Assembly (NCBI RefSeq): GCF_964194025.1
Contig: NC_134473.1
Coordinates: 73,036,001 to 73,100,000 of the forward strand
From: Convolutriloba macropyga
Taxonomy: Eukaryota
Length of the DNA: 64,000 nt
Direction: 5' to 3'
In this document: positions 2,391-53,962 of the stretch, piece after piece
How the letters are laid out: each line of letters begins with the position of its first letter
Numbering within the stretch: position 1 is the stretch's first letter
Translations under genes and position numbers: made by a program
Notes under the pieces: model-generated
Seen by the model: only the letters and a program-made list of their open reading frames with translations
Databases searched by the model: none
What the model was told of the DNA's origin: nothing

Positions 2391-3628
2391 TGTAACGGCT
2401 GCTCTCCTATCAAAGTCAAGGAAAACTTTACACCGCCCAGTTCGTTTCAGCGGTTTCAAATCTGTCCGGATATTGTGTTTTTGCAGTTAACTTTTGTGAA
2501 CTGTATTATCTGCTATACTGTAGAATACCGTTGCATTACTTGTTGCTCAATTACTCCTGTTAACTAATCGCTCAGCTTTGCTGTATAACAAACTTGTTTC
2601 TCTCAGAATAACAAAATAATTCAAATTGAAACAATCAAATTTTTGTTGAGTTTTCGTTAATAACTCAAGTTATAAACCGAATTCAGGAATTCCCGTTCCT
2701 ACAAATTGTAGCCCTATAAGTTGGCGATAACTACGCGAAGTTTCAACCTGCTGCAGTTAGCAGTTGTAAAACGGGCTGTCTTACCAGTTGCAAATCTGAT
2801 AATAATAATATTTTTCAAAATTCACAGTTAACAACTCTCTATTGGTTTCAATAACACCAATGTTGAACAAGAGTAGGCTTCGTTAAAGCCAGTAAGAGAA
2901 ACTGACTCTATGCTTTGCACAAAGTTTCTCTTACTTAGGAACTTCGCTCCTCAGAAAGAAAATTTTGAGAATATCAAAGTTAATTCTCTTTTCACAAGTC
3001 AAGATAAAATTAAAACTGTACAATCACTAATATGATCTACAGAAACAAGACACAGTAACAAGTATTTTACCGCTCAAGAAAGTGTGCTTCAATACGCACT
3101 GTATGTCAGTTTAATAAGACAAAATTCACAAGTTCAACTGATTTTTGGTAGTTTTTCAAGCTCCTTTTATGCTGCTAGTCACGTGGATTTACATGTCAAA
3201 TTCAACTGTTGATTGGTTGTAGATAATAATGTCGACAGAATGTGAACACTTTTCCATAACGTCACTTTTTCAGTGTAAATTTGATGTCATGGGAAATTTG
3301 TTAACCATGTAGAAGTTTTGTCGAATATTCTGTATCAATAACAGGTTGACTCGCAATCCAATCGCAAAGAATCTGATGCAATACTGTTAAGTCGCAGTAT
3401 TGTTTTGCTGGTAGTTCGAGTTTGAATTATAGTTTGACTTCATGAATGACGATTGTGTACTAATAATAGTTGCTAAATATAAATGTTGAACAAAATTAAC
3501 AAATCCGTTTGGCTTCGATAGAATGTAGCATTAAATTTCGCTTGTCGCACTATTCTAGCTTTAAGGCTTGAAATGGCCTTGAAACGCTATTCAATTTGAT
3601 TTCTGAGTTGTTCAGCTCAGCCGCAATA
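2391..3628 (-). repeat. 3' LTR of BEL/Pao element
   Basis: Direct repeat of 9583-10820; on the minus strand it is preceded by the purine-rich tract GGAAAACAGGGCCGGCGA. Confidence 0.95.
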
Positions 3629-9534: not shown

Positions 9535-9563
9535 CAGATTGGACAGCAGTTTGCCTTCCACTG

Positions 9564-9580
9564 TCCGGGTCGGCGGACCA
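9564..9580 (-). promoter_or_regulatory. Primer-binding site of BEL/Pao element (tRNA-Tyr-like)
   Basis: TGGTCCGCCGACCCGGA lies 2 nt after the 5' LTR end and resembles the tRNA-Tyr PBS TGGTCCTTCGAGCCGGA common in BEL elements. Confidence 0.7.
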
Positions 9581-9582
9581 AA

Positions 9583-10820
9583 TGTAACGGCTGCTCTCCT
9601 ATCAAAGTCAAGGAAAACTTTACACCGCCCAGTTCGTTTCAGCGGTTTCAAATCTGTCCGGATATTGTGTTTTTGCAGTTAACTTTTGTGAACTGTATTA
9701 TCCGCTATACTGTAGAATACCGTTGCATTACTTGTTGCTCAATTACTCCTGTTAACTAATCGCTCAGCTTTGCTGTATAACAAACTTGTTTCTCTCAGAA
9801 TAACAAAATAATTCAAATTGAAACAATCAAATTTTTGTTGAGTTTTCGTCAATAACTCAAGTTATAAACCGAATTCAGGAATTCCCGTTCCTACAAATTG
9901 TAGCCCTATAAGTTGGCGATAACTACGCGAAGTTTCAACCTGCTGCAGTTAGCAGTTGTAAAACGGGCTGTCTTACCAGTTGCAAATCTGATAATAATAA
10001 TATTTTTCAAAATTCACAGTTAACAACTCTCTATTGGTTTCAATAACACCAATGTTGAACTAGAGTAGGCTTCGTTAAAGCCAGTAAGAGAAACTGACTC
10101 TATGCTTTGCACAAAGTTTCTCTTACTTAGGAACTTCGCTCCTCAGAAAGAAAATTTTGAAAATATCAAAGTTAATTCTCTTTTCACAAGTCAAGATAAA
10201 ATTAAAACTGTACAATCACTAATATGATCTACAGAAACAAGACACAGTAACAAGTATTTTACCGCTCAAGAAAGTGTGCTTCAATACGCACTGTATGTCA
10301 GTTTAATAAGACAAAATTCACAAGTTCAACTGATTTTTGGTAGTTTTTCAAGCTCCTTTTATGCTGCTAGTCACGTGGATTTACATGTCAAATTCAACTG
10401 TTGATTGGTTGTAGATAATAATGTCGACAAAATGTGAACACTTTTCCATAACGTCACTTTTTCAGTGTAAATTTGATGTCATGGGAAATTTGTTAACCAT
10501 GTAGAAGTTTTGTCGAATATTCTGTATCAATAACAGGTTGACTCGCAATCCAATCGCAAAGAATCTGATGCAATACTGTTAAGTCGCAGTATTGTTTTGC
10601 TGGTAGTTCGAGTTTGGATTATAGTTTGACTTCATGAATGACGATTGTGTACTAATAATAGTTGCTAAATATAAATGTTGAACAAAATTAACAAATCCGT
10701 TTGGCTTCGATAGAATGTAGCATTAAATTTCGCTTGTCGCACTATTCTAGCTTTAAGGCTTGAAATGGCCTTGAAACGCTATTCAATTTGATTTCTGAGT
10801 TGTTAAGCTCAGCCGCAATA
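9583..10820 (-). repeat. 5' LTR of BEL/Pao element
   Basis: Direct repeat of 2391-3628; followed by the PBS on the minus strand. Confidence 0.95.
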
Positions 10821-22124: not shown

Positions 22125-24170
22125 AGTTTATTCCATTGCTTGCATTTATAAATTTACAAACAACAAAACATAACCCGAAAGGACATCAAAAGGTAGTTAG
22201 ACCTGTCAGTTGATGCCTTTTAATTCTTCTCAAAGTCTACTTATTTGTTAATTCAAACCCTCTTAAATCATATTTTACCCTGGTAATACCACTTTCCAAT
22301 CAAACTTAGAAACCCCTAAAAAAAGGTTTAATAAGAATGCCAATTTTACAAAAAAAATGCAGCTCGCTTTATTCCTTACCAAAAAAGGTTAACAAAAAAT
22401 CTGTTATCTATATTAAATGAGTCTCTAAAACAATGTAAAAAGTTTGCTAAATCCTGTGCACTAAAATGAGCATAATTTTGAATAATACTTTCATCCATTT
22501 TAGTAAAAACATTATATAAGCGCCTTAATCTATTTATGAGTGACTTGTTTCTTTGCTTCGTTTGCAAATATTTTGTTTTGACTAGATGAGTTCTTTCATT
22601 TATTTGGATATTTTCTTCAATTAATTCCGGAAATGAGTTATTTAATAATTTGCTTGGATGTTCATGGCGGAGAATTCTTGACAGTAATTTTATCAGTTCA
22701 TATATGTGTAACTCTTTAACAGAAAACAACTTGTGTTTACATCGCAATTCGTCAATGCTTCAGAATCTCTTAGCTGAAAATAACAAACGAAAAATTCTGC
22801 TTTGCCGCCACTCTAATTTTCGAAGATCGCTTTTATTGGCAACTCCATACAACAAAACCCCGTACTGTAATACTGGTTGAACGTAAACTTTGTATAATCG
22901 GACTAGTATGTGTCTTTTGAAAAAATTTTTATACTGATAGATTGCCGCTGTTAATGAATTCGTCCGACTAACTATTTTCTCAATGTGTGATTTGAAGCTC
23001 AGTTTACTATCTATGTATACACCCAAGTACATAATGTGGGCGACAAATTCGATGCTGTAATCATAAATTTTTATTTCAGGTGTCTCATTAGTAGCACCAA
23101 AACTTATAGCCTTGCATTTATCTCTATTTATTGCAAACTTATTTGATTCCATCCAAACTGACACAATTTCTATTGTATCATTAATTCCATCATCCACCTT
23201 TCCGTAAATATTTGTATCATCAGCAAATATAATTGAATTACAGGTACACCGCAAAAATGCTTTCAAAGAATGATCGCTGCTTGCTAACTGAAACACATTG
23301 TTGTCTGTTGGTCAAATATGAATTAAGAATGTCATCAATTTTCCCCCTCAAACCATACGCAAAGCATTTTTGGAGCAAAATTTCATGACTCACAGTATCA
23401 AAAGCCTTCGATAAATCAATAAAAACTCCATATTAACTTTCTTTCGAACACAAAGAAATCCATATTGTTTCAACAACCTCCGACACAGCATCAATTGTGT
23501 TTTTCTTTGCCTGATATCCAAACTGAGCCTTGTTTATTACTGAGTATTTGGACAAAAAAGAAATGAGCCTTTTCTGTAGACATTTCTCAACAATTTTTGA
23601 AATAACTGGGAGCAGTGATATTGGACTGTAATTACCGAACTCGTTTTCGTTACCATTTTTGTACAGAGGTATAACATTGGCACTTTTCAGAGTTCTAGGG
23701 AAATGGCCCTCATCAAAGCGACGATTAATTAATTTTGCAAATGTTTCACACACGCTTGGATTGATGAACTTAATCAGTTGATTTGAAATGTTATGCAAAT
23801 CAGAGGAAGTCTTTTTGGGCATTTGCTTGATAATGTCGAAAACTTCTTTGGCTGTGACGTTAGTTAAGAACATGGAATTTTCTAACTTTCTGAACCGGCT
23901 TAGATCTGACGGCAGACTACAACTTTCAGATAGTTTCTTTCCTATTTCAACAAAATATTTATTGATTTCATCAGCTTTCAGATTGTCAATATTTTTTTTA
24001 TTTTCGTTCCCTTAATATCGTCTATTATTGAGAACAAACTTTTAATTATGTTAGCCTTTCCTTCAATTTTTTGTTCGTAAAATTCTATTTTTGCTTTTTT
24101 CGTTAGGTTTTTTAAACGATTACGCAGCTTATTATATTTTTCTCTATTTTCGGCAGACTGTTCGTTCTTT
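22125..24170 (-). mobile_element. 5'-truncated, degenerate CR1/L2-group LINE (RT region and 3' UTR)
   Basis: Fragmented ORF2: YSPISLLPVISKIVEK, QFGY, FIDLSKAFDTV, FADDT, YLGVYID; the PQGS motif region is deleted. 3' stem GGACATCAA..TTGATGCC and AATAAA near 22130. Confidence 0.88.
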
Positions 24171-30030: not shown

Positions 30031-31769
30031 GTCTCATATCAATTGTAGTGAGATACAATTTATTTTTTGTTTAGTTTCAATTTTATCTTACGCTCTGTTG
30101 ACTTTGTTATAAAGTTTTGTTTTTTAAAACGGACAAAGTTTTTGATGTAATTATTAATGTTTGTTGTTGTTGTTTGATTTTGCTGTTCGTCTTAACTTGT
30201 TTTTTTAATATTAATGTATCTCATCAATCTAGTGCATCATTTTTTAATCCGATGAGTTATTTGCTGTGGAGGCTATCTTTTCGTTGATACACTATTTTTT
30301 TGAAAAATACTTGAATTTTTGGAATTTTCTATCTGTTCCTCATTTGATAAACAATTATACCAAAAATGTGGATGAGTGAAGTCTGAACTTTATATGCGAG
30401 CGCACATTACTACCAAACCTCCCTGTTATGATTAGTTAGAAATTGACTTCCATGCTTTTCTTAGCGGTTTTAATTTGCATGTTTCATATGCGTGTTTCAA
30501 GGAAAGATATGGATTTGCCTCGCAGGTTTCGTTAAACGATTGAAGTCAATGTGATTTCCAGAAGCATTACAAAGTCTATCCATGAAGCTATCGCAAAAAG
30601 TTCGCTATGGAAGTGCTTTGTTCTAGGTCGGTTCTGTTTCGTTTGCTGTTTGAGAGTTGTTTCAATATTTTGAAATACCACACCAACACACAAGATTTTT
30701 TGCATTTCACGCCAGCACTTGCCGAAGCCGCAGCAGCTTATCGATATTGTTTTTTCGGAACAACAATCTGATATTAGTTCGTTTTTACCCAGTACATTTT
30801 ACAATGACCGAAAATCTAGTATCTACACAAATGCGTGAAAGTGCAACGGATATAAAATTGCGGATTATCAAGACTATTTGAAGATCAGCGTTAACGTATA
30901 TCAGGGCTATCAAGAGAATCAGTACCTAAATGATGTCTCAATTTATTATCAATTGCTCTCTATCGAAGTTTGCATTAATTATTCTTTTTATGCAATATTT
31001 CGCTTGACTGATATTTGTCCAAGCCTTTTGACATTTTGTCCTCAAAAGTGGGATGTACAGGAAACGCCCGTAGAGCATTAAGTTCTCTTGAAGCCTTTCG
31101 CTGTACTATAGTCTCTAATTATGTGATTTTTGGAAACTGTTTAAGATACTTGAATTCATGGCGTAAACTGCTGATCTTAGAGTTTGACCCCTACCACTTA
31201 ACCCCCCTGCCCCTCAAACAACCCCCACCGTCCACCTTTCCAAGTCCAGCCCTCCACCTCATTCTAGCCGTAACACCCCACGCCAGCTCACTGCTGCGCT
31301 CACCACAACCCACCCCTTCCCTCAATTAAAATAAAGCTGGCCTCCCTAAGCCGCAGCTAGTTAATGATGAAGCCAAACGCTCGACAGTCGTTTCAGGTTA
31401 AAGTTAGTCGGTTATGGACTTCGTCTGTTCCCGCGGAAAACAATGGCTGCCTTGAAGCAAGCTATTGGCTACGAAATTGATTTTTTTTGTGGTTCCTTAA
31501 ACATCTTTTTATAAAATTTGGGCTTTAGTGTGGCGTGATAGATTTTCATATAGGAGTTTCGGTTTGCTATTCTTGATATAAAATCTGAGATAAAAAAAAG
31601 AACACTGTATTTCTCCTAATATCTGTAAATGTTTCATTCATAGTAAAATTTACAGAGATAGGCAGTGTAAAATATTGATAATTACAAAAGAGAAACTAAT
31701 AATTTATAATAACTAAAATATCGATCCAATGAGAAGTCATTTGTATTGGAGGGGAGGGACGACATAAAT

Positions 31770-34692
31770 TTAATGCAAAACAGAAAGAAATTTAATTGAA
31801 TTTAAAATGTTTCCAAGTAATTGATCCATGTTGGGTTTTATTTGGGTCCTTCTTGTATTCATTAAGAAAAAACAGCTTATATTTCTTCTTTGCAAGACTG
31901 TATGACATTGACAAATAATTTCTTGGGAAAGAATTGTGCTGTAGAATACCTCTTTTAATAATACTTTTTTCATGGAAATTGCATTTTGAAATTGTCTGGG
32001 AAAAAATTTTTGAGTTCGCTCGTGTATATAAAAACTTGCGGTTGGTAATTTCAAAGTTGAGCTTGAGAAGGCAGGCTTCTTTTTATTCATGATACTATGG
32101 CAGTAAGTGGCAGCCCTGTAATCAAAAAACAAAGAAATAGATAGTATACCAAGGTTCATTTTAAGATCTGAGGATGAGTTAAATTTCTGTCTGTGAAAAC
32201 AAGCTTTGATGGCTCAATTTAACTGCTTTTCTAATGTCGTTATAAGATTTTGATTGATGGTTGCAAGTAAAACAGAAGAATTTTGAACATGACTGAGAAC
32301 AAAAGCGTTCAAAGTAATTTTTTTGTAACCAGTGGGTATTATGTTCCTGAGTGCATATATGCATTTAATGCCCTGGGCCATTTTTGACAAAAGAATTTTT
32401 ACTTGTTTTTGATATTTGAGGTCTTTGTCAATATTAACACCGCGATATTTGATTTCCGCTTTCGAACTTATTAATTTGTCTCCCACTTTTAATGTCGTTT
32501 CGTCATGAGGATTAGAGCTACCAAAAATAATAAACTCTGTTTTATCCGGATTGGTCTTGAGGTGATGTAATTTAAAAAATTGTATGCATTTTTCTATGGC
32601 CTTCTCAAGCTCGTCTTTGCATTTGAGAACTTCATCATGAGAGCTTAATAGGACTGTGTCATCTGCGTATTGTATTGTTTCACATGACAAAAAGTTGCTA
32701 AGATCGTTAACATATAGATTGAACAAGAGTGGACCTAAGACGGTTCCCTGCGGAATTCCTTGAGCCACTTCAATCCAACCCGATTTGACATTATTGATTA
32801 TAACTCTTTGTGTTCTGTTTGAAAGATAGCTCGTAATTAGATTTTGAGCTGGTATCGAAAATCCAAGAATGGAAAGCTTTTGAATCATGAGCTTGTGATT
32901 AATGGAGTCAAAAGCTTTTGATAGATCTAAAAACGCCGCTGCAGTAATTTTTTTTTCGGTTTTGTTGCATCGTATTTTTCAGTTAAATAAACGAGAGCAT
33001 CTGTTGTAGAATTTTTTTTTCTGATTTCAAACTGTGTTTTAGAAAGCAGGGCATTCTTATGAACATATTCATCGATTTGTTGTTTAATAAGAGATTCAAA
33101 AACTTTTGCTAATGCTGGTGTTAACGAAATTGATCGATAGTTTAGAGGATCCTCAAGGTCTCCTTTTTTAAAAAGTGGAGTGATGTCGGCTCTTTGGAGT
33201 TCAGCAGGGAATGTTTCTGTTTTTTTGGTGTTTTTTTGCCTAACCAAGGTGTTTTGTTCCCTAACCATAGGCAGATCTACAGTATAGTTCCTACTTTCAA
33301 AAAATTGTCCTAATTTGCTGAATTTTAAATTAAGTAAGCTGGCTATTTTAGTTTTTTCTGTAATAATTTCATTGACAGAGTTTTTTAAAGAGTATACCGT
33401 AGTTGTCGTTTTCACGGAGTTTCATACTTCGTTGATCAAATTCCATTTCTTGCGCTCTGAAGTTGAGCTTTCAATTAATTGATTATGAAATTTCATAGCC
33501 AGCGCACACTTCGGCTTTCAATTTGAAAAACTCGTGGGTAGATTCTGAATTGAGGTATTGCTCTCTAAGCAGATTTTCGTTACGTGTTTTTTGAAATGAA
33601 CCGTTTGGCAAGGGAAAACTATGATTTGTTGTTTCTTATAAAAATTGTTTTGATTGGCGCATGAAGGAGTATTTGCTGTTCAAGATTTTGCTCAAATGTA
33701 CGTAGCATTTCACTTGGAACTGTAGAGCAGTAAAAAATTTCCCAATTTAGTTACTTGATAGAATCTTTAAAATCTTTTGAGCTGTAATTCGTTTTATCAT
33801 AAATTTGTTTTTTAATTACTTTGTTCTTGCTAAGTTTTGTGGCAAGAATATAAATTGAGCAAAATGATTTAGATCATACGGTTGAATGATTGTTTCTAAA
33901 TTCTGCTTTTCTTTGTTTTCCAAATAATTTATATTATAGTCTCCCATCATAATTATTGTTTTGTTCTCAGTAATTGCTCTATCAATTGATCTAGCAGACT
34001 GCTCGACAAAATTCTTCGTAAAGAAGTTTTTTGGGTTATAAGAAAAGTTTATTAAGTAAACTTTTTTGATCTTTGTCAAGTTATTTCAACCCACAGAGTA
34101 TCAAACAGAGTACTTTTGAAAGCTAGATCAACGCGTAATTTTGGGTTAGGTTTCCTAGGAACAATTAACAATACACCTCCCCCTTTTGAACTCACCCGAT
34201 CGTTTCGAAAAACAAGACAGTTTTTTTGTCCGGGTTTACCAAATAAGTGTCAATCTTTGTATCTAGCCATGTTTCAGACAGACCATAGATGCAGTTAGCG
34301 CTAACATCATTCATTAGGCTTTTTAACTGAAGTTGTTTTCTTGTTATGCTCCGTACATTTAAATGAAGGAATTTCAAGTTGTCTGAATAAGTTTAGCAAT
34401 CAAGGAATATGTCTTTTATCGATTTGATTGGCCCAGGGTTGGTTTCAATATCTCCAGACCTCAAAAATAGCAGCCAAATACTATTAATGTAAAGCCAAAA
34501 ATATAAGTTAATTAAGACAAAAGAAAATTTTAGTGATATTAAAGCTTGCTTCTTGCTCCTGGATTTGGTCTCCGACCAAATTCGAGTAGGAACTGCTATT
34601 GAGTTAAGTGACGTGGGAAAAGAGGAAGTCACTTGAGAACTCAACAACATTAATCCTAAGATTATTAAACATATCTTGTTAGAAAACATTAT
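31770..34692 (-). pseudogene. LINE ORF2 (leader-2A-APE-RT), frameshifted
   Basis: Track fragments 34393-34716, 34192-34377, 33816-34079, 32927-33415, 32214-32888 and 31770-32159 join into one ORF2. Confidence 0.85.
34429..34455 (-). other. 2A-like ribosomal skipping (StopGo) motif GDIETNPGP
   Basis: LLFLRSGDIETNPGP fits the D(V/I)ExNPG-P consensus and lies immediately before the APE domain. Confidence 0.85.
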
Positions 34693-34776
34693 TCTTAACA
34701 AACAGTTGAGACACAATTCATTCAGTACAACAGAAAATTACAATTTATTCGGCATTTTTTTTTGAATTTATTATTA

Positions 34777-35463
34777 CTAATATGCTTGATAACGGTAATG
34801 ATTATTCAAGTTAAAATTAGGGTTTTCACTTGTATTCGGCCAGTACTGCTCTTGAAGTTTTTGAAATCTATTGTTCATTTTATAGCTCCGGTTGGTGAAT
34901 TTATCAGTATCACATATGCCAGTAGATGTTTGAAGTAAAAACATTAGAAGATGATTTTTAAGGAAAGGAATGCCATGATTGTAATTCAAATGTACATTGT
35001 CATGATAAAAGAAATTATAATGGTTGATTTTTGGATTGAAGGAGGGAATTGATCGTATTAAATCATTCATCTTGAGCAAAACAAAATTTTCACCAAGAGA
35101 TGCCAATCTTTCTTTAAGTGCAGCATTAACTTCATCAATTAATTTGTTTTTAGATCTATTGTAGTCAGTTTCTTTGAACGGTATTACCTCCATGACTACA
35201 AACACATCAGGCTGGAACTTCTTTTTACCGGCTTCAATAAGGTTGAACATGTCATCTAAAATCTCATCGCAGCTTTTTTGAAATTTTGAAACAGTATTTG
35301 TTCCGTCTTGAAGAATTAGAGTTTTAAGTTTTTTACATTCATATTTTTCCACAACTTTTATTTTCTCTTTGATGGTTGACCCACGGTAGGCATGGATTGC
35401 TGTATCCAGTGGAATTGTTGCATCACGTTCTAGTTTACCAATGATGCTGCTACCCAGAACCAA
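34777..35463 (-). CDS. LINE ORF1 C-terminal SGNH/GDSL esterase domain (the N-terminal coiled coil up to ~35810 is disrupted)
   Basis: Blocks VLGSSI, AYRGST, LQDGTN and HDNVHL supply the S-G-N-H residues. Confidence 0.8.
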   Translation of the reverse strand: MVLGSSIIGKLERDATIPLDTAIHAYRGSTIKEKIKVVEKYECKKLKTLILQDGTNTVSKFQKSCDEILDDMFNLIEAGKKKFQPDVFVVMEVIPFKETDYNRSKNKLIDEVNAALKERLASLGENFVLLKMNDLIRSIPSFNPKINHYNFFYHDNVHLNYNHGIPFLKNHLLMFLLQTSTGICDTDKFTNRSYKMNNRFQKLQEQYWPNTSENPNFNLNNHYRYQAY

Positions 35464-35920
35464 ATTTGATTGTTCTTATTTGAGGGGGATTAAATCAAAA
35501 TCTCTGACCTTCTCTGAAAAAACCTGGTTTTTTCGAGATTTTGATTCAGGGTTGGTTGTGCCCTCCCCTTCAGTAGTTGACTGTTCCAATGATTAGTCCT
35601 GCAGTTGTCGCTGATAAGTAACGAGCACATTTTCAATAAATTTTTCCTTTTTTTGTAATCTTTGATGTAAGTCAAGATATAATTTGTAGGAAGTTTCCTT
35701 TTTTTAGTTGAACCCATTCAGTTAGGGAAAGTAATGAAGGATCAGTTTGTTCATTTAGATTGAAATGCTCCTGGCTTTCTAGTTGAATGTTATTAGAGTT
35801 TGTCATAGACATTGCAATTTCTGTATTTTTGAATGAAAAAGGTCAAGTTTATTTTTGCTGTGTCTGCATAAGTGTAAAATCGATCAATGTTTCAAAAGAA
35901 GAAAGGTCAACTGTAATATT

Positions 35921-36038
35921 TGAAAGTTATTCGCTTGTCTGAAAATTATTCGCTTGTCTGAAAGTTATTCGCTTGTCTGAAAGTTTTTCGCTTGTCTGTG
36001 AAAGTTATTCGCTTGTCTCAAAAGTTATTCGCTTGTCT
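35921..36038. repeat. 19-21 bp tandem repeat x6 in the LINE 5' UTR
   Basis: (GAAAGTTATTCGCTTGTCT)n. Confidence 0.9.
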
Positions 36039-36271
36039 ATTTAATAAGTTTATCACAACAGTTAGGCTAATTAGGCAAAAATATAAGCACTAGATTTTTG
36101 TGGTTCTGAGAAAGTTGACTGACATTGTGTTCAGCCGACCAGAAAAAAATGGGAAACTTAGTCGATAGCATAATTTTTATTTGCCGAAAAATCTGAATAG
36201 TTTTTTTCCTCCTGTCAGTCAATATTCGACGATCTGTTGATCTGGCTGAATCTAAAACTGATCTGTTTCAG

Positions 36272-37158
36272 CTGGCGCTGTTTATGTGAGCGAGAGCACA
36301 CTCAATACGTACAGATACACAAGTCTAATATTTCTAATTTTCACTCACATATTATCATTTTCTGCTCTTGTAATCTTATGCTTAAGCGTTGCCAAACGTA
36401 TCAAAACCAGGCCACAATTTTGCCTTAAATCTGGAGTCATAGTGATAAATTTGAAAGTTTTCACAATATTGGTAGCCTACAATGTTTACGTTGCTATGAC
36501 GTCAGCCTTCACTTGGACTGGAATTATGATAATAATGGCATTTGTCTTGGCTTTAATCGAGTTATGCTTATTGAACTCTGTTGTATACGTTTATGCTATA
36601 CAGAGTTTAGGAGTTCAATACAACAGAAGGTCGACACTTGGACGCTCATTTGGCCGAAAAACCGAAAATTTGCCAAATAGCCGAATGAAGCAAAACGCTC
36701 GCTTTGCAGAACCCTTGCAAAATTTTGAGGAGAACCCTTCTTTTACCCGCTATGAAAACAACACGGAATTTCAGCAAGAACCGCGACGATTCACAAAACG
36801 ACGAGTTTCAACAAAAAGTTCCTCCGAATCAGTAAAAATTGTTGTTCCCATGGAATCCGTTGCAGATCCGGTTCAAAAAGCCGAAATTCAACCAGCCGAC
36901 GATTTTGAGCGATCACGAGCAAATGTTGAGAAGCCCGACTTGCGATTGCCATCTGTTAGTCCAAAAGTTGCGCCAAAACAAGCTGTTAAAATTGACGCTC
37001 CAGAATCGCCGGAGGGCGCTGACGTCCCAAAGAAAAAGAGAGTAAAAGTTAAGAGGAAGAAAACACAAGGACACGAGGAGTTGAAAAAGGCACTCCGAGA
37101 ATCAAAGAAAGTAGGCAAAAATAATGCGAATATCAAGAATCACCAAGATAAAAAGTAA
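36272..37158 (+). CDS. Terminal exon of the four-TM protein: three TM helices and a long basic, low-complexity cytoplasmic tail
   Basis: Acceptor CTGTTTCAG|CT (phase 1) and an open frame of ~295 codons; hydrophobic YTSLIFLIF..CLSV, GVIVINLKVFTILVAYNVYV and FTWTGIMIIMAFVLALIELCLL; K-rich tail. Confidence 0.75.
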
Positions 37159-40627: not shown

Positions 40628-43600
40628 TGTTTTCTACTTATTTACAAGAGATTTCCAGTTTACTATGAATTGCTAGGTTGCACAAGTGGGTAAAACATAA
40701 AACCCGCAAATTTTACAAATCAAAACAAATCGGAAGTCATCAATCAATCAAAACAAATTAAGGAAATCAAGCTTGTGCTTGAACACTCCGGGCCACTTGC
40801 ATGAAGGTTAAACAGAATACTCTTGTTGTATGTTACAATTTAAGATTTCGACAATCAAGTTTTCATGATTTTTTTGCTAATTTGTATTTTCAACATTGTT
40901 TTGTAATGTCGAAGGTGTAAAGACGATCTGTTGTAATAATTAAGGGCATTTTTGTTTTCCTGAGTGTGTGTGTGTGTAAAATTGTTCTACACTCTTCCAG
41001 GGCAGCATATACACCCGCTATGTGTTGGTGAAAGTTGGTGATCATACGTTTGCATCGACGTTTTAATTTGATTCGTGGTAATCGGAATATTGTGTTGTTG
41101 AATGACATGGATGTGTGAAAGTAGTTAATAGGCTTCATTGGGGCTACTAAATCGCCTTCCAGACTAATAACCAGACTAAATCGCCTTCTTTCAATCCCTC
41201 TGATTCTGTTCTCCACTTTGGGTGGCTGATAAGATCTGATGTGTACTCCTTTTGCAAAAGTTTCCAAAAATGATCCAGTAATGTTTGTGTGTAAGAAATA
41301 TCCTTTTTACTGAATTTTTGGCTGGTTGATGTCAGCGGTGCTAAAGGGCTGTAAGGGCGTCTTAATAAAAAATGATTAGGTGTTAGTGCTTCCTCGTCGT
41401 TTGTGTCTGAGGAGACATATGTAATTAGCCTGTTAGGAAATCCTTCAGTCTCGGCTACAATTGTCTGAAAAATTTCGGCTATCAATTGTTGGATGCCTAA
41501 ATTTATAAGGAAAGTGCGTTTTGGCAGACTGAATTAGCCTTTCCCATACGCCAACGAAATAAGGGTCTAGAGGTGGATTCAGTTTCCATGTAATATTTTT
41601 TCAAGCACAAGCTTGATTTCCTTAATTTGTTTTGATTGATTGATGACTTCTGATTTGTTTTGATTTGTAAAATTTGCGCGTTTTTTGTTTTACCCACTTG
41701 TGCAGCCTAGCAATTCATAGTAAACTGGAAATTTCTTGTGAATAAGTAGTAAACATTGGTGACGTTTTTTAACGACAAACACATTGAAAGCAACCAAACT
41801 TCTGAAATTGAAAAAAAGTTAACAAAATCAGGGAGTACTTCAAAAATTTTTCTCAATACTATTTCCATTGTTCCTTTAATTCAAAATGTTTGCTGTATTT
41901 TAGAACCCTTTAGAAAGGAGCCGTCATTTAGCGACAGTAACGAAGAACCATAATAAAGATGATAGAGATTTGAAAAAAAGAAGAAAGAAAGGAAAATAGA
42001 TAAAAACAAAAATGTGTCACAAGAAATGACGTCTACAGAAGATTGTCTCTCCGCAACCAAATAGTCCTTGTTTCATTTTCAAATTATAACGAAGAACAAA
42101 GTTAACAAAAAAATCAAAGGGTCTTCATCCGAAGTAACATTTATATAATTTTATACCTATAAATTACCTACTAATATCATATTTATTTATTATAAGACAT
42201 TCATATCGTTTTTCCAATTTGCGATTTTGGTGCTCGATGTAAAAGCGTCCGAAAAAGTCTAAGCCAACATTTAGAAAATGATATTGTTTTTGTGCTTTGC
42301 GAATTGGAAACTGGGAAGGTCAGCCAGGGAAGGGGGGTAATAATTTGTGCTCTCCATCGTCGGCAACTGAAGCATGTTTTGCTTAGTTGTTTCAAAAATC
42401 GTCTTAATCCTATGATAATGAAATCTTGCTGCAGGTGTGCGCGCACAAACTCTGTTCCAAGATGTCTACAGTCTTTCTGGGCTTGCTCAATTATTAATTT
42501 GGTAATATTATTCTTACTGTCAAGAATAACTGGATGTTTCGGGCTGTAGGGTATTTTAGCGTGCTTTAATCTGCCTCTTGCTCGTATTGAACCATTTTTG
42601 TCCCGGAAGGGAGTGAACTGTAATAACTTGTCCTTTTTGTCTAGTTCATTCAAGGTTTCTTATGGTTTCAGAAAAGGTTTTATGCTGTGATTGTCTCAAT
42701 AGATGGTGTCTTCATCACTGTTTGTGACTGGTCGTTTTTGGAAGATATTGACTGCTTTCATTACTGTTTCGGTTCGTCGCATAAGTTTTTTCCAACTAGA
42801 AAAATCATTAGTGTCAATAACTGTGTTTGAAAATTCTGTAAGCAAAACTTTTGTCGTTGTAAATTGCTGGTCTATTTGGAAATTTGGAAAGGGATTTTTT
42901 AGGAGAATGACTGCCATTTTTCTTTTCAAGTCTGTTAAAGAAAATCCTCTTGTTCCGTAATCTGCTGGGTTGATTTTACCGGGTACAAAATTTTATTTTC
43001 CTGACTTAGAGTTTGCTAAATTTTTTGCATTTTTATTTGCTACAAAAATTTTTGGTGCTTTGTTGATTTAATCCAACCTAATGTAGCCATACTGTCATCC
43101 AGAATTGAATTTTGTCAAAGTGTGCTGTCATTTGGCTTCGCACAAAGGAAGCAAGTTCTGCTCCCATAGCTGCCGCTTCAAGTTCTAACTTGGGGATGGT
43201 TGTTGTTTTAATGGGTGCAACTCTTGCTTTGCTAACAACATATTGAGTTGTTATTTCTTCTGCGCTGCTTGATCTGATGTATACTGTCGCTGCTATTGCT
43301 GTACTTGATGCATCGCAAAATATGTGAAGTTCATGCTTAGCATCTGGGTTGGCGATCAGACATCTGCTAATAGAAATTTCTGGCATCTGCTCATATTCGT
43401 CGACCCTTTGCTGTAAGTCGTGTTGGATCTCTCTTGGAATCTGATTGATCCAGTTGTTACATTATTTCACTACTGATTGGAAAATGCATCGTACTCTAAT
43501 GGAAAACGGCGTGATGAATCCAAGGGGATCGAACAATGATGCGGCGAGTGACAGCAATTGACGTTGTTGCAAGCTCTTGACATCCAGTTTTTACTCTGGT

Positions 43601-46600
43601 TTTTTGAAGATGAAAATATCGTCCTTGGAATTCCACATTTGTCCTAAAATACGTTGCTTTGTCGCTGTGTCTGCACTTTGTCCAATTATTTTCATGACGG
43701 TGTTTGGGTCGTTACTAAAAATTTTGGAAGCTTAAAGCCACCTTTTTGTAGTGTATCCTTTACTTCTGTTGTTGTGATTGCTGCGTTTTCGGTTGTCTTG
43801 AAACTTTGAATGTAATCATCCAAGAAGAAATTGTTTCTTATGGCTGAGTAGGCTTCAGGACTACTTATTTTGTTATATTCCGCACATCTGTTGAGTAGGT
43901 ATATTGCAAATGAAGGGGAACAAGTTGCACCAAATATTAGTTTCCTAAACTTGAAAATTTTTTCTTCTCCATCTTTGTTCCAGAAAAATCGTAGTGCGTC
44001 TTGATCTTCTTTTCTTATGGCAACTTGCATGAACATCGCTTCGATATCACCAGTTACTGCAACCTTGTACTGCCGAAATCTCAGAAGAAGTCCAACAAGG
44101 CTGCATAGTAGATTTGGCCCGGTCAAAAGAGCTTTGTTATGTGAATGTCCCTTGTATACTGAAGCTGCATTTGTGACTTGTCTTATTTTTTTCTTCATTT
44201 TATGTTCAACGGGGTGGTGTGGGAGATACCAAAGTTGTGAATTTATAAAAGTGGGTTGACATTGTGTCTCTTCAATAAATCCTTTTTCGATGTCTGTTTC
44301 GATGGTTTGGTTGTAACGACAAAATAGTTTTGGTTCCTGTTGAAGTCAGTTTCCAAGTGACTGTAATTGTGCTTTGGCAAGAAAGTAGTTGTTCGTTAGT
44401 TTAGTTTAATCGTTCCAAGGTAGTCCTATCTTATGACAAAAACCATTGTGGCATGTCGTTCTTTTTAGTGTTTCAAGAGCTTTCCTGTCATCTGCAGTCA
44501 ATGTCTTTTTTCTACTCACTAAATTTTTCCCTCCATTGTCCAAAACATTTGAAGCATGTCGTTCTCTATATCCTGTTCTGGGTTTTTTATCCTGTTGTAA
44601 AGCGTGATGTTGTAATTGACTTCTTGTTTATTACTGGTTGGCTTGTATTTCTGTGGTATTGGTCCTGTAACGGTCCGTCAAAGCTGGGTCAAGGCTGGTT
44701 ATGGGGTTCCTGGTGGGCCATTTGTGAATTTGAGTGGTACTGTTGCTATGAAGGCATCCGCTCCGATTAAAGATCCTATTCTGTTATCTCATATTTGTGG
44801 AAAAGTAATGTTGTTAAGATGATCGTATTCGGCGCAGATAGAGTTCAACATCTCAACGGGTACATTCGGCATTTGAAAGTCAGATGCTGACTTGTTGTAC
44901 ACCGGTAGGTTGAAAAGAGGTCGGGTGCTGTTGAGTGATCCAATTCCCAGAAGGACTTCAGTTGATGTTATGATGTGATCTCCATGAAGTGAAAAAATTG
45001 GTACTGCAATGTGATCTATGATTTTTATTCCGAGTGCTTTTGCCGTTGAGTTCGTTATTTGTGTGTTGTCGCTCCCGCTATCCAAAAGAGCATATGTTTC
45101 TATTGATACGTCTTCTGTGTAAGGGATAACCGGAATGGCTTGAAGTTGAACTTGAGGTCGTATCCATGAACTGATTTGGTTGTTACGGCATTTGTGATTT
45201 TCTGGTCGTGGTTTGCTGTTGTTTTTGTTAAAGTTTTGTTGCCTTTGGCTTTGATTTTGTGTGTCTGTTTGATTATGAGAATGTCCGGTGTTGTGTTGTC
45301 TTTAATTTGCATTTAGCATGAAATTGTTCGGATTGTTATAATTTCTATTGAAGGTGCTTCCATTGTTGTTGTTGAGATTGTAATTCTGATTGAAACGGTT
45401 AGTCTTATTGTTTTGACCAAGAGAGTTAGGTGTGTTGTTGTTATGATTGTAACCAACCACTCTTCCATAGTTGAATCCATGTGGTTGAAACTGTGATCTG
45501 TTGGCAGTTATCGGTGTGTGGTATCCGATATTCTGTTGACCACGATTGTTGTGACAATTGTTTGCAAAATGGTTTTGAACCTGGTTGTTTGTTTGTTGTT
45601 GATGTTGTTGCTGTTGGTTCTTTTGCTGTTGCTGAGTTGGTGAAAAAAGACTGTGGACTGTTGAAGTTGTTTCTGTGAATTGTTGAGTGATGAAATACGT
45701 TGCAGTTTTCGATGCGACATCGGTAGTGACTGTTACACTGTCCTTTTGGCTGTTCGATGAGGCAATTTTTGCAAATTTTCAGTTGTCTTACTGTTAAGTG
45801 TCTTTCGTTAAGATCTTTTTTGAGGAATTGGTTGCGTTTTCCTAAGTTGTGGCCGTATCCACATAGTGGGCATCTTTTGTTACTTCGCTGTTGGAAGAGT
45901 CTCATTGATCTTCTAGATGAACTGTTTTCTTGATTGATTGGTCTTTGTGATGTTGACAAATCTTCGCAAGCTTCAGCGTAATTATCGATCCAGTCCTTAA
46001 AATGTATTAAATTAGGTTGAACAATAGTGTTCCAACTTATCAAGGTAAGCTGCTGTAACAAGTTGTGGTTTCACGAATCGTTTTTGTAATTCTTGCATTG
46101 CCTCATTATAAAACTCTCCGTTGTATGCGTATCCACTGATGCTATCTTTGGCTCTGTCTGTGAGTGTGTTCTGAAGATGTGTCATCGGTTGGGAATTTGT
46201 CAGTGTTACATTGTCTTGTATTGTGGCTTTGAAAAAAACTAAACCATTCGTGCCATTTCAAGGGATCTCCGCTGAAAGATTTGAGTTGAGTTTTTGGAAG
46301 ATTAATGCTGGATGTGACAGTTTGTTGCTGTGCTTAACGTGGCAAAAAAATTTTTTCTGTTGTCTGTGTATGTTGAAACTGTCTGTCTGGTTGTTGGTCA
46401 GCTCTGTTGATGTAATTTGGTAGTCTTTGGTCTTTTGCGTTGATATTAAAATTGCAAAGATTGTTGTTCGTTTATGGGATTAGGTTGTTGACGGTTTTTC
46501 TGCTCAAATCTCTCTCATTTGATTGGTTACTTCTATTAAAATTGTTCGCATTTCGATAGAAATCGATGCTTTGAGGACATTGCCTCTTGATTTTAATTAT

Positions 46601-49098
46601 GTTCATGAATATTTGAAGTTCTTTGACCTTGAATCTCCTGAAATTGGGTATTTGTTGAGGCAAGGTTCACATCATGGATCTTGTCTATTTTTCTTTCTCT
46701 ATTTCTGGCTTGTTGTCTTTTTGGTTGCAGTTCATACCGTGTTGGGCTACTTCTTAGTCTGATATTGTCGATTTGTTGATGATCGTCACTTTCATCTTCT
46801 GTTGATTGTCGATCATTACTGTCGTAGTCTGTTGTCTGTTGATTTCTTCTGTGTAAAGGCATAATATTAATTGATGATTGTTTCCTGCTAAAAGGATATA
46901 AATTTTGTTGCCTTGATTGTTGCTGATTTGGCTGTGTTTTTTTTGTGTTTTCCGTTGGTCTGGGATGTTAGTGCCAACTGTCTGATTTGAACTGCAGTCA
47001 GATTCAGTACTTATATCTGATTGGTGTCTTTTTTGTTTTCTTTTAGCGTGTTTATAGGATTTGGGTTTTTCGTTTGATGTAGTGGTACCAACATCGCGTC
47101 TTATGGTAATTTTTTTGGTCGATGTTTTGCTCTTTGTAGCTAACGTCAATTGCTTCTCGGGATTTTGTCCAGCCCTCATCAGCATTGCTTTTTCTTTGTT
47201 GTACCTTCTCAAATTGTTGTGCTCTTCTTTGGCGCTAAGACAATTGACTGTCGGATTCTGTAGCAATTTCTGTTGATTCGTCTTTGCCATATTTTTTCCA
47301 CTTCAAGATAACCAGACTAAGTTCTGCTGATCTCTCCATTATTTCCTTCAGTTCATTTTGTGTGAGGTTGTATTTAAAAAGGTCGTCGCAGAAATTGTCT
47401 AACTGCAGCTTTTGTTGAGAAAGAGACTCATAGGACAAATTGATTTTCTCAAAATTTTCCTCTTGAATCATTGCCTCCAGATAGTCGTCATTGACTGTCC
47501 ATTCTGCTTCTCTCTTCTGCAGCTGTTGTTGTATCGCCTTTTTCTTATTGTTGGCGCTTGGCATATTGATACAGGTGCTTAATGCAACAGTTTTGAACTT
47601 TGTTCTTGTTTGATCTATCAGTTTGTCAGTTTTGGTTTTTGTTAAGTTTTTGTAATTGCTGAATGAAACAAGTATTATCAAAAGCAACTTCAATGGACAC
47701 GCGTAAGAAAATTCAGTTTGTTTGCTGCAGTAAAACATCTGCTCTGGACGCTTTTTTCTTGTTTTCCTGTTAATGTGTTGAGGGTGTTATTGTTCTGTGG
47801 CAGGGCGATATGATTACTTTTATACGAAAGCTACAGTATTAAGTGTTTTTACCTTTTCGATACAAAACTCCTTTGTTCTGAAATTTGAGTGAAAAAGCGA
47901 TCAGACCTGTTTTTTAATGAAGTGAGGTGTATTGTGGTCTATTTTTTTGTCTTTTATCCTAAACTTTTTTGGGTCTGTTGAACTTTGCAGATAGTCAGAG
48001 AACGTCAATTTATATCAAAACATGTTTATATAGTCAGAGAACGGACACATGATATCAAAACATGTTTATTATCGTTTTTTGATGCTGCAGGTTACTACTT
48101 GAACTTTAAATCTTTTCTCCACCGAACAAACTAAATCCGAAGTTTTTTTAACGTGCCTTCTGAAGTAGAAAGCGTTTGACTGTAATTGCTGTGTTCTTTC
48201 TTGCTTTACATTCTTTTTGAATCAAAAAACCGGAAACTTGATTATTATCTACGATAAAAACAAATTGCGAGTGTTCTTTATCTTTTTAATGTGTGTGTAT
48301 GTGTATGAACACTATCTGCTCCAGAGTTGAAACAATGTACACGCTTGCTGAAAAGTAGAAAACGTTATTGAACGCTAATCTCATCTAGAAATATGGAATA
48401 TTCTGTTGCAAATCGAAAAAGTGCAAAGCTTGTTCTTGTTTTTTTAACAGGAGCGTGGACAAAGTTTTCTTATATTAGATACAAGGTATATAAATATGAT
48501 ATTAGTATATAAATTTGATATTAGTAGTATTTTATAGTTATACAATTATATAAATGATACTTCGGATGAAGGCCCTTTGATTTTTTTAAACTTTGCTGTT
48601 CGTAAGAAATTAAAAATGAAATTAGGACTATTTGGTTGCTGAGAGACAAGCTTCTGTAGACGTAATTTCTTGTTACACATTTTTATACTTATCTATTTTC
48701 CTTCCTCCTTTTTTTCAACTCTTTATCTTCTTTATTCTGGTTCTTCGCTATTGTCGCTAAGTGACAACTCCTTTCTAACGAGTTTTAAAATACAACAAAC
48801 CATTTGAGCTATAGGAACAATGGAAATTGTTTTGAAAAAATTTTTTAAAGTGCTCCCTGATTTTGTTAACTTTTTTTCAGTGTTTCAATTTCAGAAGTTT
48901 GGTTGCTTTCAATGTGTTTGTCGTTAAAAAAGGTCACCAATGTTTACTAATTATTCACAAGAAATTTCCAGTTTAATATGAATTGCTAGGCTGCACAAGT
49001 GGGTAAAACATAAAAGGCGCAAATTTTACAAACCAAAACAAATCAGAAGTCATCAATCAATCAAAACAAATTAAGGAAATCAAGCTTGTGCTTGAACA
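40628..49098 (-). mobile_element. Older degenerate BEL/Pao LTR retrotransposon with short LTRs
   Basis: 158-bp LTRs at 40628-40785 and 48941-49098 (TG..CA, about 10 mismatches), TSD GCGGG, PBS TGGTGACC (tRNA-Trp-like). Fragments DSGS, LLTGPNLL, GDIEAMFMQV, HIFCDAS, TIPKLEL, KHPVIL and ALTPNHFL. Confidence 0.92.
41598..42195 (+). mobile_element. Inverted 5' end (LTR + PBS + 5' UTR) of the same BEL family, inside the integrase
   Basis: Reverse complement of ~48490-49098; LTR at 41598-41755 followed by TTGGTGACG. Confidence 0.88.
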
Positions 49099-50345: not shown

Positions 50346-53300
50346 TTAATTTATGATGTATGACATTTCTCCCGTTAATTTGTTAAAAGAAAAGAGTACT
50401 CGCGATGCGGGATCGGAAGTGGTAGTAAATAATTTAGAAGTGTTGACTTTTGAAGTAGGATATGTATGTGCGAATACGGAATCATTTTGAGTTGAATGTA
50501 CTCGCTGATCATGTGCACTAATACAATTAATACTATAAGTGGGATGAAGAAATGAGTTATGTTTTTGATCTGCGAATGATTTAGTATTATCGGTTAAGTG
50601 TACGCGCGAGGCGTGTTTACTATACGGATGATTGAATTTAAGGGAGGTTACGTTAGAGTTGTATTTTCGCGCCGCGAGATTTGAACTAAAATTTGTTAAG
50701 CGTACACGCTGGGCGGACTTTATGTCTAAATTAGAAGTTTGTTTTGAACATAATTTTGAACTATTGTTTCGCGGGGCGAGTAATTCATGAATTTTTGTTT
50801 GAAGATTTGGTGTTACGTAATCTCTAATTAGAACTTGTTCAGTATTAGTGGTGGAATTTTTATTTTCACCATCAATATCAATATATAATTTATGAAGTGA
50901 ATGAGCAAAGAGGTTGTGTTTTCGTTGAAGTGATTGAGCATCAGAACGTATGCTTGATAACGTTGCGACTAAAAATTCCTCATCATATTTGGAACCACTT
51001 TTTGCTGGTTGATATGGATTTCGAGATATGTAATCAACTAGTCCCTTTTTCGCGCCAGGTAGATGCTCTATGGAGAATTGATAAGGCAAAAGACGATCAA
51101 CCCATCGTGATAATCTACTATGGTAACTTTTATTTGATCGATGTTCTTTTAAAATGGAAAGTAATGCGCGGTGATCAGTGATAACAGTGAATTCTTTACC
51201 ATACAAATAATTTTTAAAATATTCTATGGACCACACTACCCCAAGAAGTTCTAATTCGTTAATACTATAACGATCTTCACTACTGTTTAAAAATCTTGAT
51301 GCAAAAGAAATCGGCTTCCAACCGTCAGCTGTTAGTTGTTCTAGTGCTGCTCCCAATCCGGAGCGAGAAGCATCACATTTGATTCGTGTTTCGAGTTGGG
51401 GGTTATAGTGAATGTTTTCTGTATGATTTGCTATGCGAGTTTTTATGGCATTAAAATGTAGCGTCTGAGTGTCAGTCCAAATGTATTTAGTTGACTTACG
51501 AAGTAGAGGTCTTAAAGGATGGCAGAGTTGAGCTACATTGGGAATGAATTTACTAATATAGTGGACTGAGCCGAGAAATGAGCGTAATTTTTTAAGTGTA
51601 TTAGGTGGTTGCAATGACATAATAGAGGATGTTTTAGATTCGAGTGGCGATATCCCAGATTGAGTTATATTATATCCTAACCAGGAAACTTGTTGCTTCG
51701 CAAAGTGACATTTAGGAAGGTTAATTCGAAGATTATCTGCGTCCAGTTTTTTAAGACAATCTAACACAAGTTGGAAGTGATCATCTTCGGAACCTTTACT
51801 TACAATTAGGATGTAGTCTAGGAAACAAAATGTATTTTTAAGACCAATCAAGGTGTAATCCGTTGCCTTCTGAAACTCGGCAGGCATGTCTGTTAGACCA
51901 TAAAATCCCGTTTTGACGATATGTGCCTGTCATGTCACCACATTCAATATCAAAATTACAGTGTTTAGCAGTTTAAGGATGTAAGTTTAGTTGGCTGTAT
52001 GCATATTTAAGATCTATAGTAGAGAAAAATATTTGTTCCGCTGGTTGTGTTTTGTAGTTTGTTATTATTTGTGATATGGAATCCATAAGTGTTTCAATAT
52101 TTGGCATCTGATATTTGTTCTTGTGTATTGCTTTGTTAAGAGTTTTAGAATCTAATGCTAACTTTATGGTTTGATCTCGTTTGACTGTGATTACAATAGG
52201 TGAAATAAAGTATTGGTCAGAACAGTTATTCAGTTTTTCTATATGTTCCTCTTCAAGAAGTTTTTTTAAATTCATTATTTACTCATTCTTGTAAATTAAT
52301 GCGTACTCTTCTACCCTTTTGGTGTTTTGGCTGAAAATTTCGATGGAATTTAGATTTAAAAATGTATATTTTTGAACGACCAATACGTGTAATAATTTGA
52401 GGAAATCGTTTTGCAATACGTGTTTTAAATGGACATTGAGATGTGATAGTGTTGACCATACTACCTTCATTTTTTGGAATTTGAAATTTTGATATTCTAA
52501 GAGCGTCAAATAGATCTCTACCCACTAGTGGTTTTAGCCCGTCACGGACTACCACAAATTCAGCTTCTTCAAGTCGCCATCCATTGCTCTCAATTGGTGC
52601 CTGTATCATACCCGTCACGTTTATGGGTTCGTTTGAAAATGTTTTGAGTTCCTGGGGAGGCGCTATCATCAGCCAACGAGCAAGAGGAGAATTTTCCACA
52701 ATCTCCGAAGCAAGAGACTCGGGTAAAATACTGCATACACTGCCTGAATCAATGAGAAGTCCAACGTGGGTATCACCAATTTGTATGGTGGTTTTCTTTG
52801 GTTCGATCTGTATTGCGTTACTTGCGATGCTAGCGACCATATTGTCATCTGAGCTATCGTAGTCTGATTCGCATTGCGGGTTATAATTCATATTTTGTAT
52901 GGCGTTTATCGTTTGGTCAGTTGGAATTTCTTCAAGAGAGTTAACATTGGATTGGGTGGGTTTATTTGATGATGACTTCGGTTTCCTGCACACTCGCGAA
53001 AAATGGTTTTGGAGACCACAGTTATTGCAAGCCTTGCCTCTCGCAATACACTTGACTTTATGATTAGCTGACCAAGTTAAACCACAGTTCCTGCAGAGTT
53101 GATTTGGTGATCGAGTAAAACTAGATGTAGTCGGCCGTTGATTCGGTGGTCGAAAAGATCGTTGAGGAATTATTGCATTAATTTGCGGAGCAGATTGCAA
53201 GTTTGTAATCCGTAGTTGGTTTCTTTGACCCAATTCCATATTTATGGCCAAACGTAATGCTTGGGCTGGTTCTAGAGTTTCTCGCAACAATTCCCGTTGA

Positions 53301-53962
53301 ATTTCCGGATCTAACATATTTGCAATAAATAAGTCTCTGATAAGAGTATCTTCTTGACTCCCGAGCTCACAATTTTCAGAAAGTTCTTTCAATTTTCCAA
53401 AGAAATGTTCGATAGACTCTCCTCTTGTCTGTTTTGGGTTGAGAAGTACGTACCTATCAAATGTGATATTGCGCTGACGAATAAATGCTGCTTCCATAAT
53501 TGTCCAAAGTTCTGCTGTTGAGAGGTTGTCCATCTTGAGGTGTGGATTTTGGCTACAAACAATTCGACGTCCTTCAGTGCCCAAACTGAGATATAGCATT
53601 GACACAGTCTTTCGATTGGCCTGTGCCCATGGTTTGTCTCTGCACATTATTCCTATCTCCAGTTGTCTCTGACACCGATTTTCTCAGTTCATTTTTGATT
53701 GAGCATTCCTCGCCAATCTTTCCCTCTCCGACTGTGCCGATGATCCTGTTATCGTGTCCTCATAGATCGGTTCAAGTGGTAGTTGCACTGTTTTGGGTTT
53801 TGGTTCCAACAAAGTGTCTATTGTAATATTTTCCTTCGCAAGAAGAGCTAACTTGGCCTGCATCTGCCACTTTTCCCATTTCAGCGGAGGGTCTACATTA
53901 GGTTTATCCCAAAATGGCTCAATGCCAAGTGGGGTCCGCTTCTGAGCTGCTGACTGCGCCAT
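50346..53962 (-). pseudogene. Gypsy gag-PR-RT-RNase H with frameshifts, a stop and a mutated RT motif
   Basis: Two CCHC knuckles (CRNCG..H..C, CNNCG..H..C), LIDSGS, IDLKYAYSQL, FLDYILI (DD->DY), CDASRSGLGA, YSINELELLGVV, TDHRAL and VDYISR. Confidence 0.9.
53947..53961 (-). promoter_or_regulatory. Gypsy PBS (tRNA-Ser-like)
   Basis: TGGCGCAGTCAGCAG abuts the LTR and is complementary to a CTGCTGACTGCGCCA tRNA 3' end typical of tRNA-Ser. Confidence 0.7.

Follow-up and report, generated by a model that had tools for sequence, protein, structure and literature searches.

A signal-peptide-like segment ahead of the 2A motif at the ORF2 N-terminus of an APE-type LINE family and related families

The window, a stretch of 64,000 nucleotides analysed as a whole, carries on its minus strand a near full-length but broken copy of a young two-ORF LINE family of the APE type. 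Its features are listed below, with the basis of each in brackets.

31590..36050, minus strand: near full-length broken LINE copy (sister-copy alignment)
35922..36039, minus strand: ~19-base unit repeated in tandem ~6 times, at the LINE 5' end (direct reading)
34777..35812, minus strand: ORF1, SGNH/GDSL-esterase-like, with an upstream helical segment (motif blocks; Pfam on family members)
34624..34689, minus strand: signal-peptide-like ORF2 N-terminus, residues 1-22 (heuristic scoring on sister copy L077)
34519..34623, minus strand: spacer with a basic patch (net charge +5 in L077; sequence unconserved between families)
34462..34518, minus strand: second hydrophobic stretch, residues 58-76 (19-residue Kyte-Doolittle (KD) value 1.87)
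34429..34455, minus strand: canonical class A 2A motif GDIETNPG/P, with the skip site between 34432 and 34431
34393..34395, minus strand: premature in-frame stop specific to the window copy (next open stretch, 34192..34392, in the same frame)
31770..34392, minus strand: fragmented APE- and RT-coding parts of ORF2 (Pfam; APE via sister copies)

Sister copies align with the LINE from 31590 to about 35860-36050 with ~89-97% identity and share a 3' boundary near 31590, and the tandem ~19-base units are covered by matches of L033, L034 and L043-L045. A DNA search of the same genome found the family to be multicopy and dispersed, with at least 41 matches, spread over many contigs, from the 40 candidates scored out of 74; an exact 33-base pattern, too strict for copy number, matched the window copy alone. 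The open stretch 34737-34393 of the minus strand has its first ATG, the ORF2 start, at 34689-34687 and ends at a stop 12 codons past the 2A skip site, where most sister copies read through (34395-34393); more frame breaks lie downstream. Furthermore, ORF1 is split into pieces, being 344 aa long in L039, and the copy is short of ~280 bases relative to sister copies through two deletions, near 33868 and at 33224-33246. Because of the in-frame stop after the skip site, the split ORF1 and the lost bases, the window copy is a dead insertion. The first-pass annotation had recognised the anatomy of the ORF2 leader and overlooked this broken state.

ORF2 has the LINE arrangement of an N-terminal APE followed by RT (Pfam Exo_endo_phos(_2) and RVT_1): RVT_1 matches the window at 32217-32978 with E 2.7e-27, and the APE was scored on sister copy L032 as Exo_endo_phos_2 (E 8e-5). 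Two related families, L120 (1253-4555, plus strand) and L124 (284-4644, minus strand), show an uninterrupted ORF2, and L124 also an uninterrupted ORF1. The best PDB matches of the intact L124 are the R2 and L1 ORF2 proteins. An esterase ORF1 and a 2A are both known in CR1 and L2, which is only a lead to the clade of the window LINE.

The window also contains a BEL/Pao LTR retrotransposon at 3550-9678 (minus strand), apparently young, with an uninterrupted frame of 2042 codons (Peptidase_A17, DUF1759, RT and integrase). Broken LTR-retrotransposon frames at 40890-47786 and 50346-53683 (both minus strand) hold integrase and RT pieces and a 527-codon frame for RT-RNase H, and weak RT fragments of another element are found at 22760-24011 (minus strand). 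On the plus strand, opposite to the LINE, a 298-codon frame (36262-37158) opens ~200 bases beyond the LINE 5' terminus and encodes hydrophobic segments followed by a basic tail; it matches no Pfam family and is possibly an exon of a host membrane protein. Elsewhere in the genome (G000:C1, ~43.343-43.351 Mb), L069-L073 are five tandem units with a spacing of ~1.82 kb. All of them contain a leader-2A fragment, and in four of them a different endonuclease fragment adjoins it.

ORF1 of the family contains the blocks G-S-S, GTN and D-x-x-H (alignment A1), which bear the Ser, Gly, Asn and His of SGNH enzymes. Pfam analysis of ORF1 from seven family representatives gave OSK in 5/7, Lipase_GDSL in 3/7 and Lipase_GDSL_2 in 2/7 (best E 1.5e-9), one member matching strongly and the others weakly; neither GDSL nor OSK was matched by the window family's own representative, and the window piece alone had no esterase match in Pfam. 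Profile searches gave weak matches to a GDSL enzyme and to the ZfL2-1 ORF1 esterase 4c1b (E 0.7-0.9; 0.88 for 4c1b). Of the earlier description of ORF1 as a lipid-binding esterase, the motif blocks and Pfam thus speak for an SGNH-esterase-like protein; in the text of Schneider 2013 (PMC3905857) available to us, phospholipid binding and hydrolase activity are shown for ZfL2-1 only, whose ORF1 esterase binds liposomes. An esterase-like ORF1 lies upstream of a 2A-type ORF2 in at least seven families of this genome, and in the window family it ends ~90 bases upstream of the ORF2 start. TAATG-type stop-start overlaps are seen near several leader ATGs of the genome's families. In L003, ORF1 is in the same frame as ORF2 and ends with four tandem in-frame stops, and a five-codon ATG-started micro-frame lies between the two.

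The ORF2 leader has 86 residues up to the skip site and ends in the 2A motif directly before the APE domain, so that the layout given by the first-pass annotation (signal-like start, basic spacer, hydrophobic stretch, 2A and then APE) was found on the minus strand. Residues 1-22 show a short basic n-region, an uncharged core of 11-13 residues (13 in this family) and a c-region of small residues, with -3/-1 sites after residues 17, 18, 22 and 23 and candidate signal cleavage after residue 22 or 23. An n/h/c layout of this kind is that of a cleavable signal peptide. By heuristic scoring, the segment shows the basic n-region, short hydrophobic core and small -3/-1 residues of a Sec signal peptide. 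In L077 the best 10-residue Kyte-Doolittle window reaches 3.27, with p=0.014 against shuffles and 0.027 against local nucleotide shuffles. The window 2A fits the -GD(V/I)ExNPGP- motif of PMC3708506, and its Leu-rich region (-19 to -10) has three Leu in the window copy and four in most sisters. A Pfam match of the leader to Cornichon was below threshold and was put down to generic hydrophobicity, and an ESM Atlas query with the leader returned no usable match and was uninformative.

By eye, the leader can be read without interruption from its start position through the 2A in 14 of the 16 most similar copies (the ATG being kept in 12) and in 16/30 of all fetched copies; closure of the leader in other copies, which would have told against the earlier proposal, was thus not the rule among the closest ones. 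Changes found in single copies are near neutral (leader pN/pS 0.88). Those common to at least three copies give a pN/pS of 0.46 for the leader (5 synonymous, 8 nonsynonymous) and 0.15 for the APE (21 and 12), and the signal region alone has one synonymous and two nonsynonymous shared changes, too few for a ratio. The dN/dS check that had been proposed for the leader therefore points to weak constraint there and stronger constraint on the APE, and within-family evidence for selection on the leader is weak.

A back-translated 2A pattern gave 591 matches in the genome against 0 for a reversed control, and 90 of the 2A places (30, plus 60 of 70 further listed) were examined and fell into 28 clusters. 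Thirteen APE-adjacent families were tried, of which ten have an open ATG-started leader and three do not, the other clusters being unscored. Leaders of the ten families extend 67-82 residues ahead of the 2A motif. Their start ATGs were picked by eye; in 8/10 no earlier ATG occurs in the open stretch, and in 9/10 the frame is closed by a stop 0-16 codons before the ATG. Scoring used hydropathy windows (Kyte-Doolittle values), taking the best 10-residue window near the N-terminus; shuffles were confined to the first 72 bases, which preserves the local T-richness. The mean best window is 3.18 in the ten families compared to 1.79 +/- 0.20, with a maximum of 2.47, in 400 shuffled sets; singly, seven of the ten have p<0.05 and one p=0.05, and the windows of the remaining two, L124 and L116, are no better than their own shuffles. 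In codons 2-22, a fixed and unselected range, the T fraction is 0.53 in second codon positions and 0.37 in both first and third positions (p=1.6e-4), and the bias was absent from the spacer and from the DNA before the ATG. The uncharged core has 11-16 residues, in none of the ten families is its N flank less positive than its C flank, a -3/-1 site follows it in 9/10, and small residues are enriched directly after it (33/70 vs 59/209, p=0.005). The spacer has a net charge of +1 to +7 in 9/10 families and is unalignable between them. Between eight families the initial Met and the 2A motif are the only invariant positions; nevertheless, the layout repeats. The signal-like ORF2 start noted in the first-pass annotation thus recurs in ten diverged families and exceeds local T-rich shuffles, which supports the N-terminal signal-like segment as a conserved protein-level feature of 2A-bearing ORF2s. 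Five 2A sites of this genome that are followed by a PHD-like finger (L052, L053, L095, L064 and L089) show, by eye, no signal-like start.

Outside proteins were collected with queries consisting of the 2A region and APE, the signal region being left out, and their start codons are those of automatic gene callers. From the 160 proteins of set 1, 50 fragments, 32 with a leader shorter than 45 residues, 12 more than 60% identical to our own loci and two without an initial Met were dropped, and the 64 kept were sorted by profile-based placement and by recognition of variant 2A motifs. An N-terminal window of at least 2.0 was found in 26/42 proteins with a 2A or variant motif and in 0/22 without. 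Set 2 comprised 95 proteins, of which 41 were dropped and 54 kept; a signal-like window was present in 21/36 with a 2A and in 4/18 without, and three of these four have a variant 2A by eye. Clustering the 36 2A-type leaders of set 2 at 50% identity gives 22 groups, of which 14 are signal-like. Among the proteins examined, the signal-like start was in this way confined to 2A-type ORF2s, and it is absent from 16/42 and 15/36 of the outside 2A leaders. In a quick APE tree 19 of the control rows lacking a 2A form one clade, so the link between 2A and signal comprises few independent contrasts and is overstated by its Fisher p-values. Within-leader shuffles place the hydrophobicity at the leader start (2.03 vs 1.15 +/- 0.12 and 1.92 vs 1.12 +/- 0.12 in the two sets), and enrichment of small residues in the c-region was not significant in the outside leaders (p=0.09). 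The signal-like layout is kept over APE branch lengths of ~0.5-1 change per site, though the leaders are unalignable. This persistence over deep branches without sequence conservation is a stronger point than the association itself, and the signal-like start with a 2A is a widespread variant of the known layout of 2A-bearing LINEs.

Named signal-bearing proteins come from Exaiptasia diaphana (P0090) and Hydractinia symbiolongicarpus (P0295), both with degenerate motifs. Variant motifs are lineage-wide in P0215, P0218, P0090, P0077, P0149, P0155 and P0104, and most of these keep a signal-like start; NPG is followed by Y or F in the first three, and N is replaced by C in P0077, P0149 and P0155. 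To judge by their sequences, the NPG-Y/F and N-to-C motifs probably cannot skip. A second type of 2A leader shows a conserved Y-R-x-x-(I/V)-G-x-F-like motif near its start and internal hydrophobic segments, with no N-terminal signal (P0130, P0264, P0265, P0270, P0272, P0278, P0288, P0293, P0296 and P0304). PF28493 and PF27108, which are listed on several homologs, had no match in a local Pfam scan.

The ORF2 N-terminus is probably a working SRP signal. As the main reading, to which we give a probability of about 0.45, the signal-like start and the 2A would together be a targeting switch that places the LINE RNA and its RNP at the ER. SRP would bind the ORF2 signal and carry the ribosome with the LINE mRNA to the ER, and skipping at the 2A would then drop the 86-residue leader, so that Pro-APE-RT would be synthesised unattached in the cytosol, close to both its own RNA and the membrane. 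There the esterase ORF1p could assemble the RNP, and unskipped chains would be lost into the ER. With Gly86 in the P site, the second hydrophobic stretch would lie inside the 30-40-residue tunnel and the signal would have just emerged; 65-70 residues span the ribosome and translocon according to De Felipe 2010 (PMC2978324), and the same source reports that an upstream signal can inhibit a 2A via the translocon, which here would cost the element its enzyme. When the skip occurs, the nascent chain would measure 61-105 residues in 40/42 proteins of set 1; in set 2 its length is 59-304, and just 22/36 have 112 or fewer, a spread that weakens the argument for length tuning. The targeting-switch reading leaves unaccounted for the retention of a signal in lineages whose motifs are probably non-skipping.

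Hydrophobic residues extend from about 50 to 76 in the leader, and the second stretch proper, residues 58-76, covers positions -29 to -11 relative to the skip site. According to PMC13405545, eukaryotic 2As normally have as their active part a Leu-rich helix that occupies -19 to -10 and begins between -25 and -20, and the stretch is largely an ordinary exit-tunnel helix of the 2A. The first-pass annotation had taken it for a TM segment, and on this basis had proposed a stop-transfer anchor tethering unskipped ORF2p to the ER with a cytosolic APE-RT, and/or a leader acting as a functional third, membrane protein, both of which we consider improbable. The stretch is long here, passing the usual 2A helix by ~5-10 residues and being TM-like (19-residue KD of at least 1.6) in 9/10 families, and a tether would account for lineages with a signal and a degenerate 2A. 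Outside this genome, though, it is TM-like in just 18/42 and 14/36 leaders, and in 12/42 a signal-like start occurs without a TM-like second stretch. A stop-transfer TM anchor would have ~19 hydrophobic residues, conserved and with the more positive flank on the C side; here the N flank is the more positive in 9/9 own and 23/23 outside leaders, a bias partly forced by the invariant D/E of the 2A, which argues against an anchor with the APE-RT in the cytosol. The idea of a third product is countered by the lack of any conserved residue in the would-be mature peptide across the eight compared families.

A rather unlikely alternative, though one that sequence does not separate from the targeting switch, is a dosage sink or sensor, in which a real signal sends unskipped ORF2p into the ER, translocon pull sets the skip rate, RNA localisation is incidental and the active enzyme is kept scarce. 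Down-regulation is a published proposal for LINE 2As (Odon 2013, PMC3708506); the translocon alters 2A outcome via the region 28-48 residues before the skip site (PMC2978324), which here corresponds to the basic spacer, and 59% of the ORF2p-linked 2A-like peptides tested in PMC13405545 lowered protein output, the class responsible having 3-6 Leu in the N-terminal helix, a range that includes the Leu counts given above for the window copy and most sisters. A Leu-rich 2A lowers output by itself, however, and a separate signal kept across many families then seems superfluous. The hydrophobic N-terminus might instead be a translational or stability element unrelated to the ER, such as a duplicated 2A helix left as a relic, or a hydrophobic degron that clears the leader once released. 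It is found only alongside 2A-type motifs, several cores end in L-L-L-S-S, like the L-L-L-S-G start of 2A, and signal and 2A sequences are a few mutations apart according to PMC4981915; the three-part n/h/c arrangement right where the frame begins and the in-frame stops shortly upstream of the ATG in nearly all families make such a role quite improbable. Very improbable is a by-product of T-rich DNA, in which stop-free frames look hydrophobic and the leader is a mere spacer for the 2A. The leaders are 35-43% T, shuffles already score ~1.8, one off-frame reading (L060) scores 3.08, and ATGs were picked by eye, two of the ten not being the first of the open stretch; at the level of the set, this explanation is rejected by the local shuffles, the codon-position bias and the positional shuffles.

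It is doubtful, but would reach furthest, that a signal and 2A module serves a large group of 2A-LINEs including the cnidarian ones, with the mRNA docked on the ER translocon, pull being read to decide the skip, APE-RT freed at the membrane and the lipid-binding ORF1 esterase assembling the RNP. If true, this would amount to an ER-based LINE life cycle and provide the missing reason for LINE 2As lying 60-100 residues into ORF2. The purpose of LINE 2As and of the stretch ahead of them has been a question since 2013, and the site where LINE particles assemble is a question too; a conserved signal-like start makes both addressable by reporters and connects them with the hypothesis that esterase ORF1 proteins work at membranes. 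Since an upstream signal can alter skipping, 2A activities obtained with 20-30-residue peptides in cytosolic reporters may miss the native outcome.

LINE 2As have been described ~40-80 aa into ORF2 in Rex1, L2, Crack, CR1 and Ingi (Odon 2013, PMC3708506; Luke 2013, PMC3894237), and PMC3708506 bears out the earlier background statement that 2As occur at the ORF2 N-terminus of APE-type non-LTR elements; it also reports that several LINE 2As with a near-canonical motif are inactive. The window LINE resembles these elements in its canonical 2A near the ORF2 N-terminus, directly before the APE as in CR1-26_BF and Ingi. A signal-like character or targeting role for the leader is not given in the available text of Odon 2013 and Luke 2013, and a paper describing a signal peptide on a LINE ORF2 was not found among the accessible texts, which included PMC4120745 (Metcalfe and Casane 2014), PMC12338488 (Rao 2025) and bioRxiv 10.64898/2026.09.24.754024; subscription papers, theses, Repbase reports and supplements lay mostly outside this scope, and relevant detail may stand in the sequence figure and supplement of Odon 2013 or in the PMC13405545 tables. 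Both the 2A and the leader's length have precedents (Odon 2013), while the N-terminal signal-like segment is apparently unpublished. Elements with both an ORF1 and a 2A are given as exceptions in PMC3708506 (CR1-26_BF, CR1-53_BF and CR1-1_LG), whereas the combination is common in this genome, as shown by the families with an esterase-like ORF1 described above.

Three other systems share parts of the proposed scheme. In sea-urchin NLR genes a combined signal/2A peptide gives dual targeting (Roulston 2016, PMC4981915). There, as predicted here, an N-terminal signal and a skip site divide the product between ER and cytosol; however, one ~26-residue peptide of host immune genes acts as both signal and 2A, whereas in the LINE the signal-like segment is a separate element, 40-70 residues ahead of the 2A, and the protein concerned is a retrotransposon enzyme. 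ZfL2-1 likewise has an SGNH-type ORF1p, for which membrane-based RNP assembly has been proposed (PMC3905857); an ORF2-encoded targeting signal is not given in the available text of that paper, and the window ORF1p resembles 4c1b weakly, as noted. In yeast Ty1, SRP gathers the retrotransposon RNA at the ER (Doh 2014, PMC3945221), similar to the co-translational delivery by SRP proposed here; Ty1 differs in being an LTR element whose Gag itself enters the ER, with no 2A mentioned in the text available.
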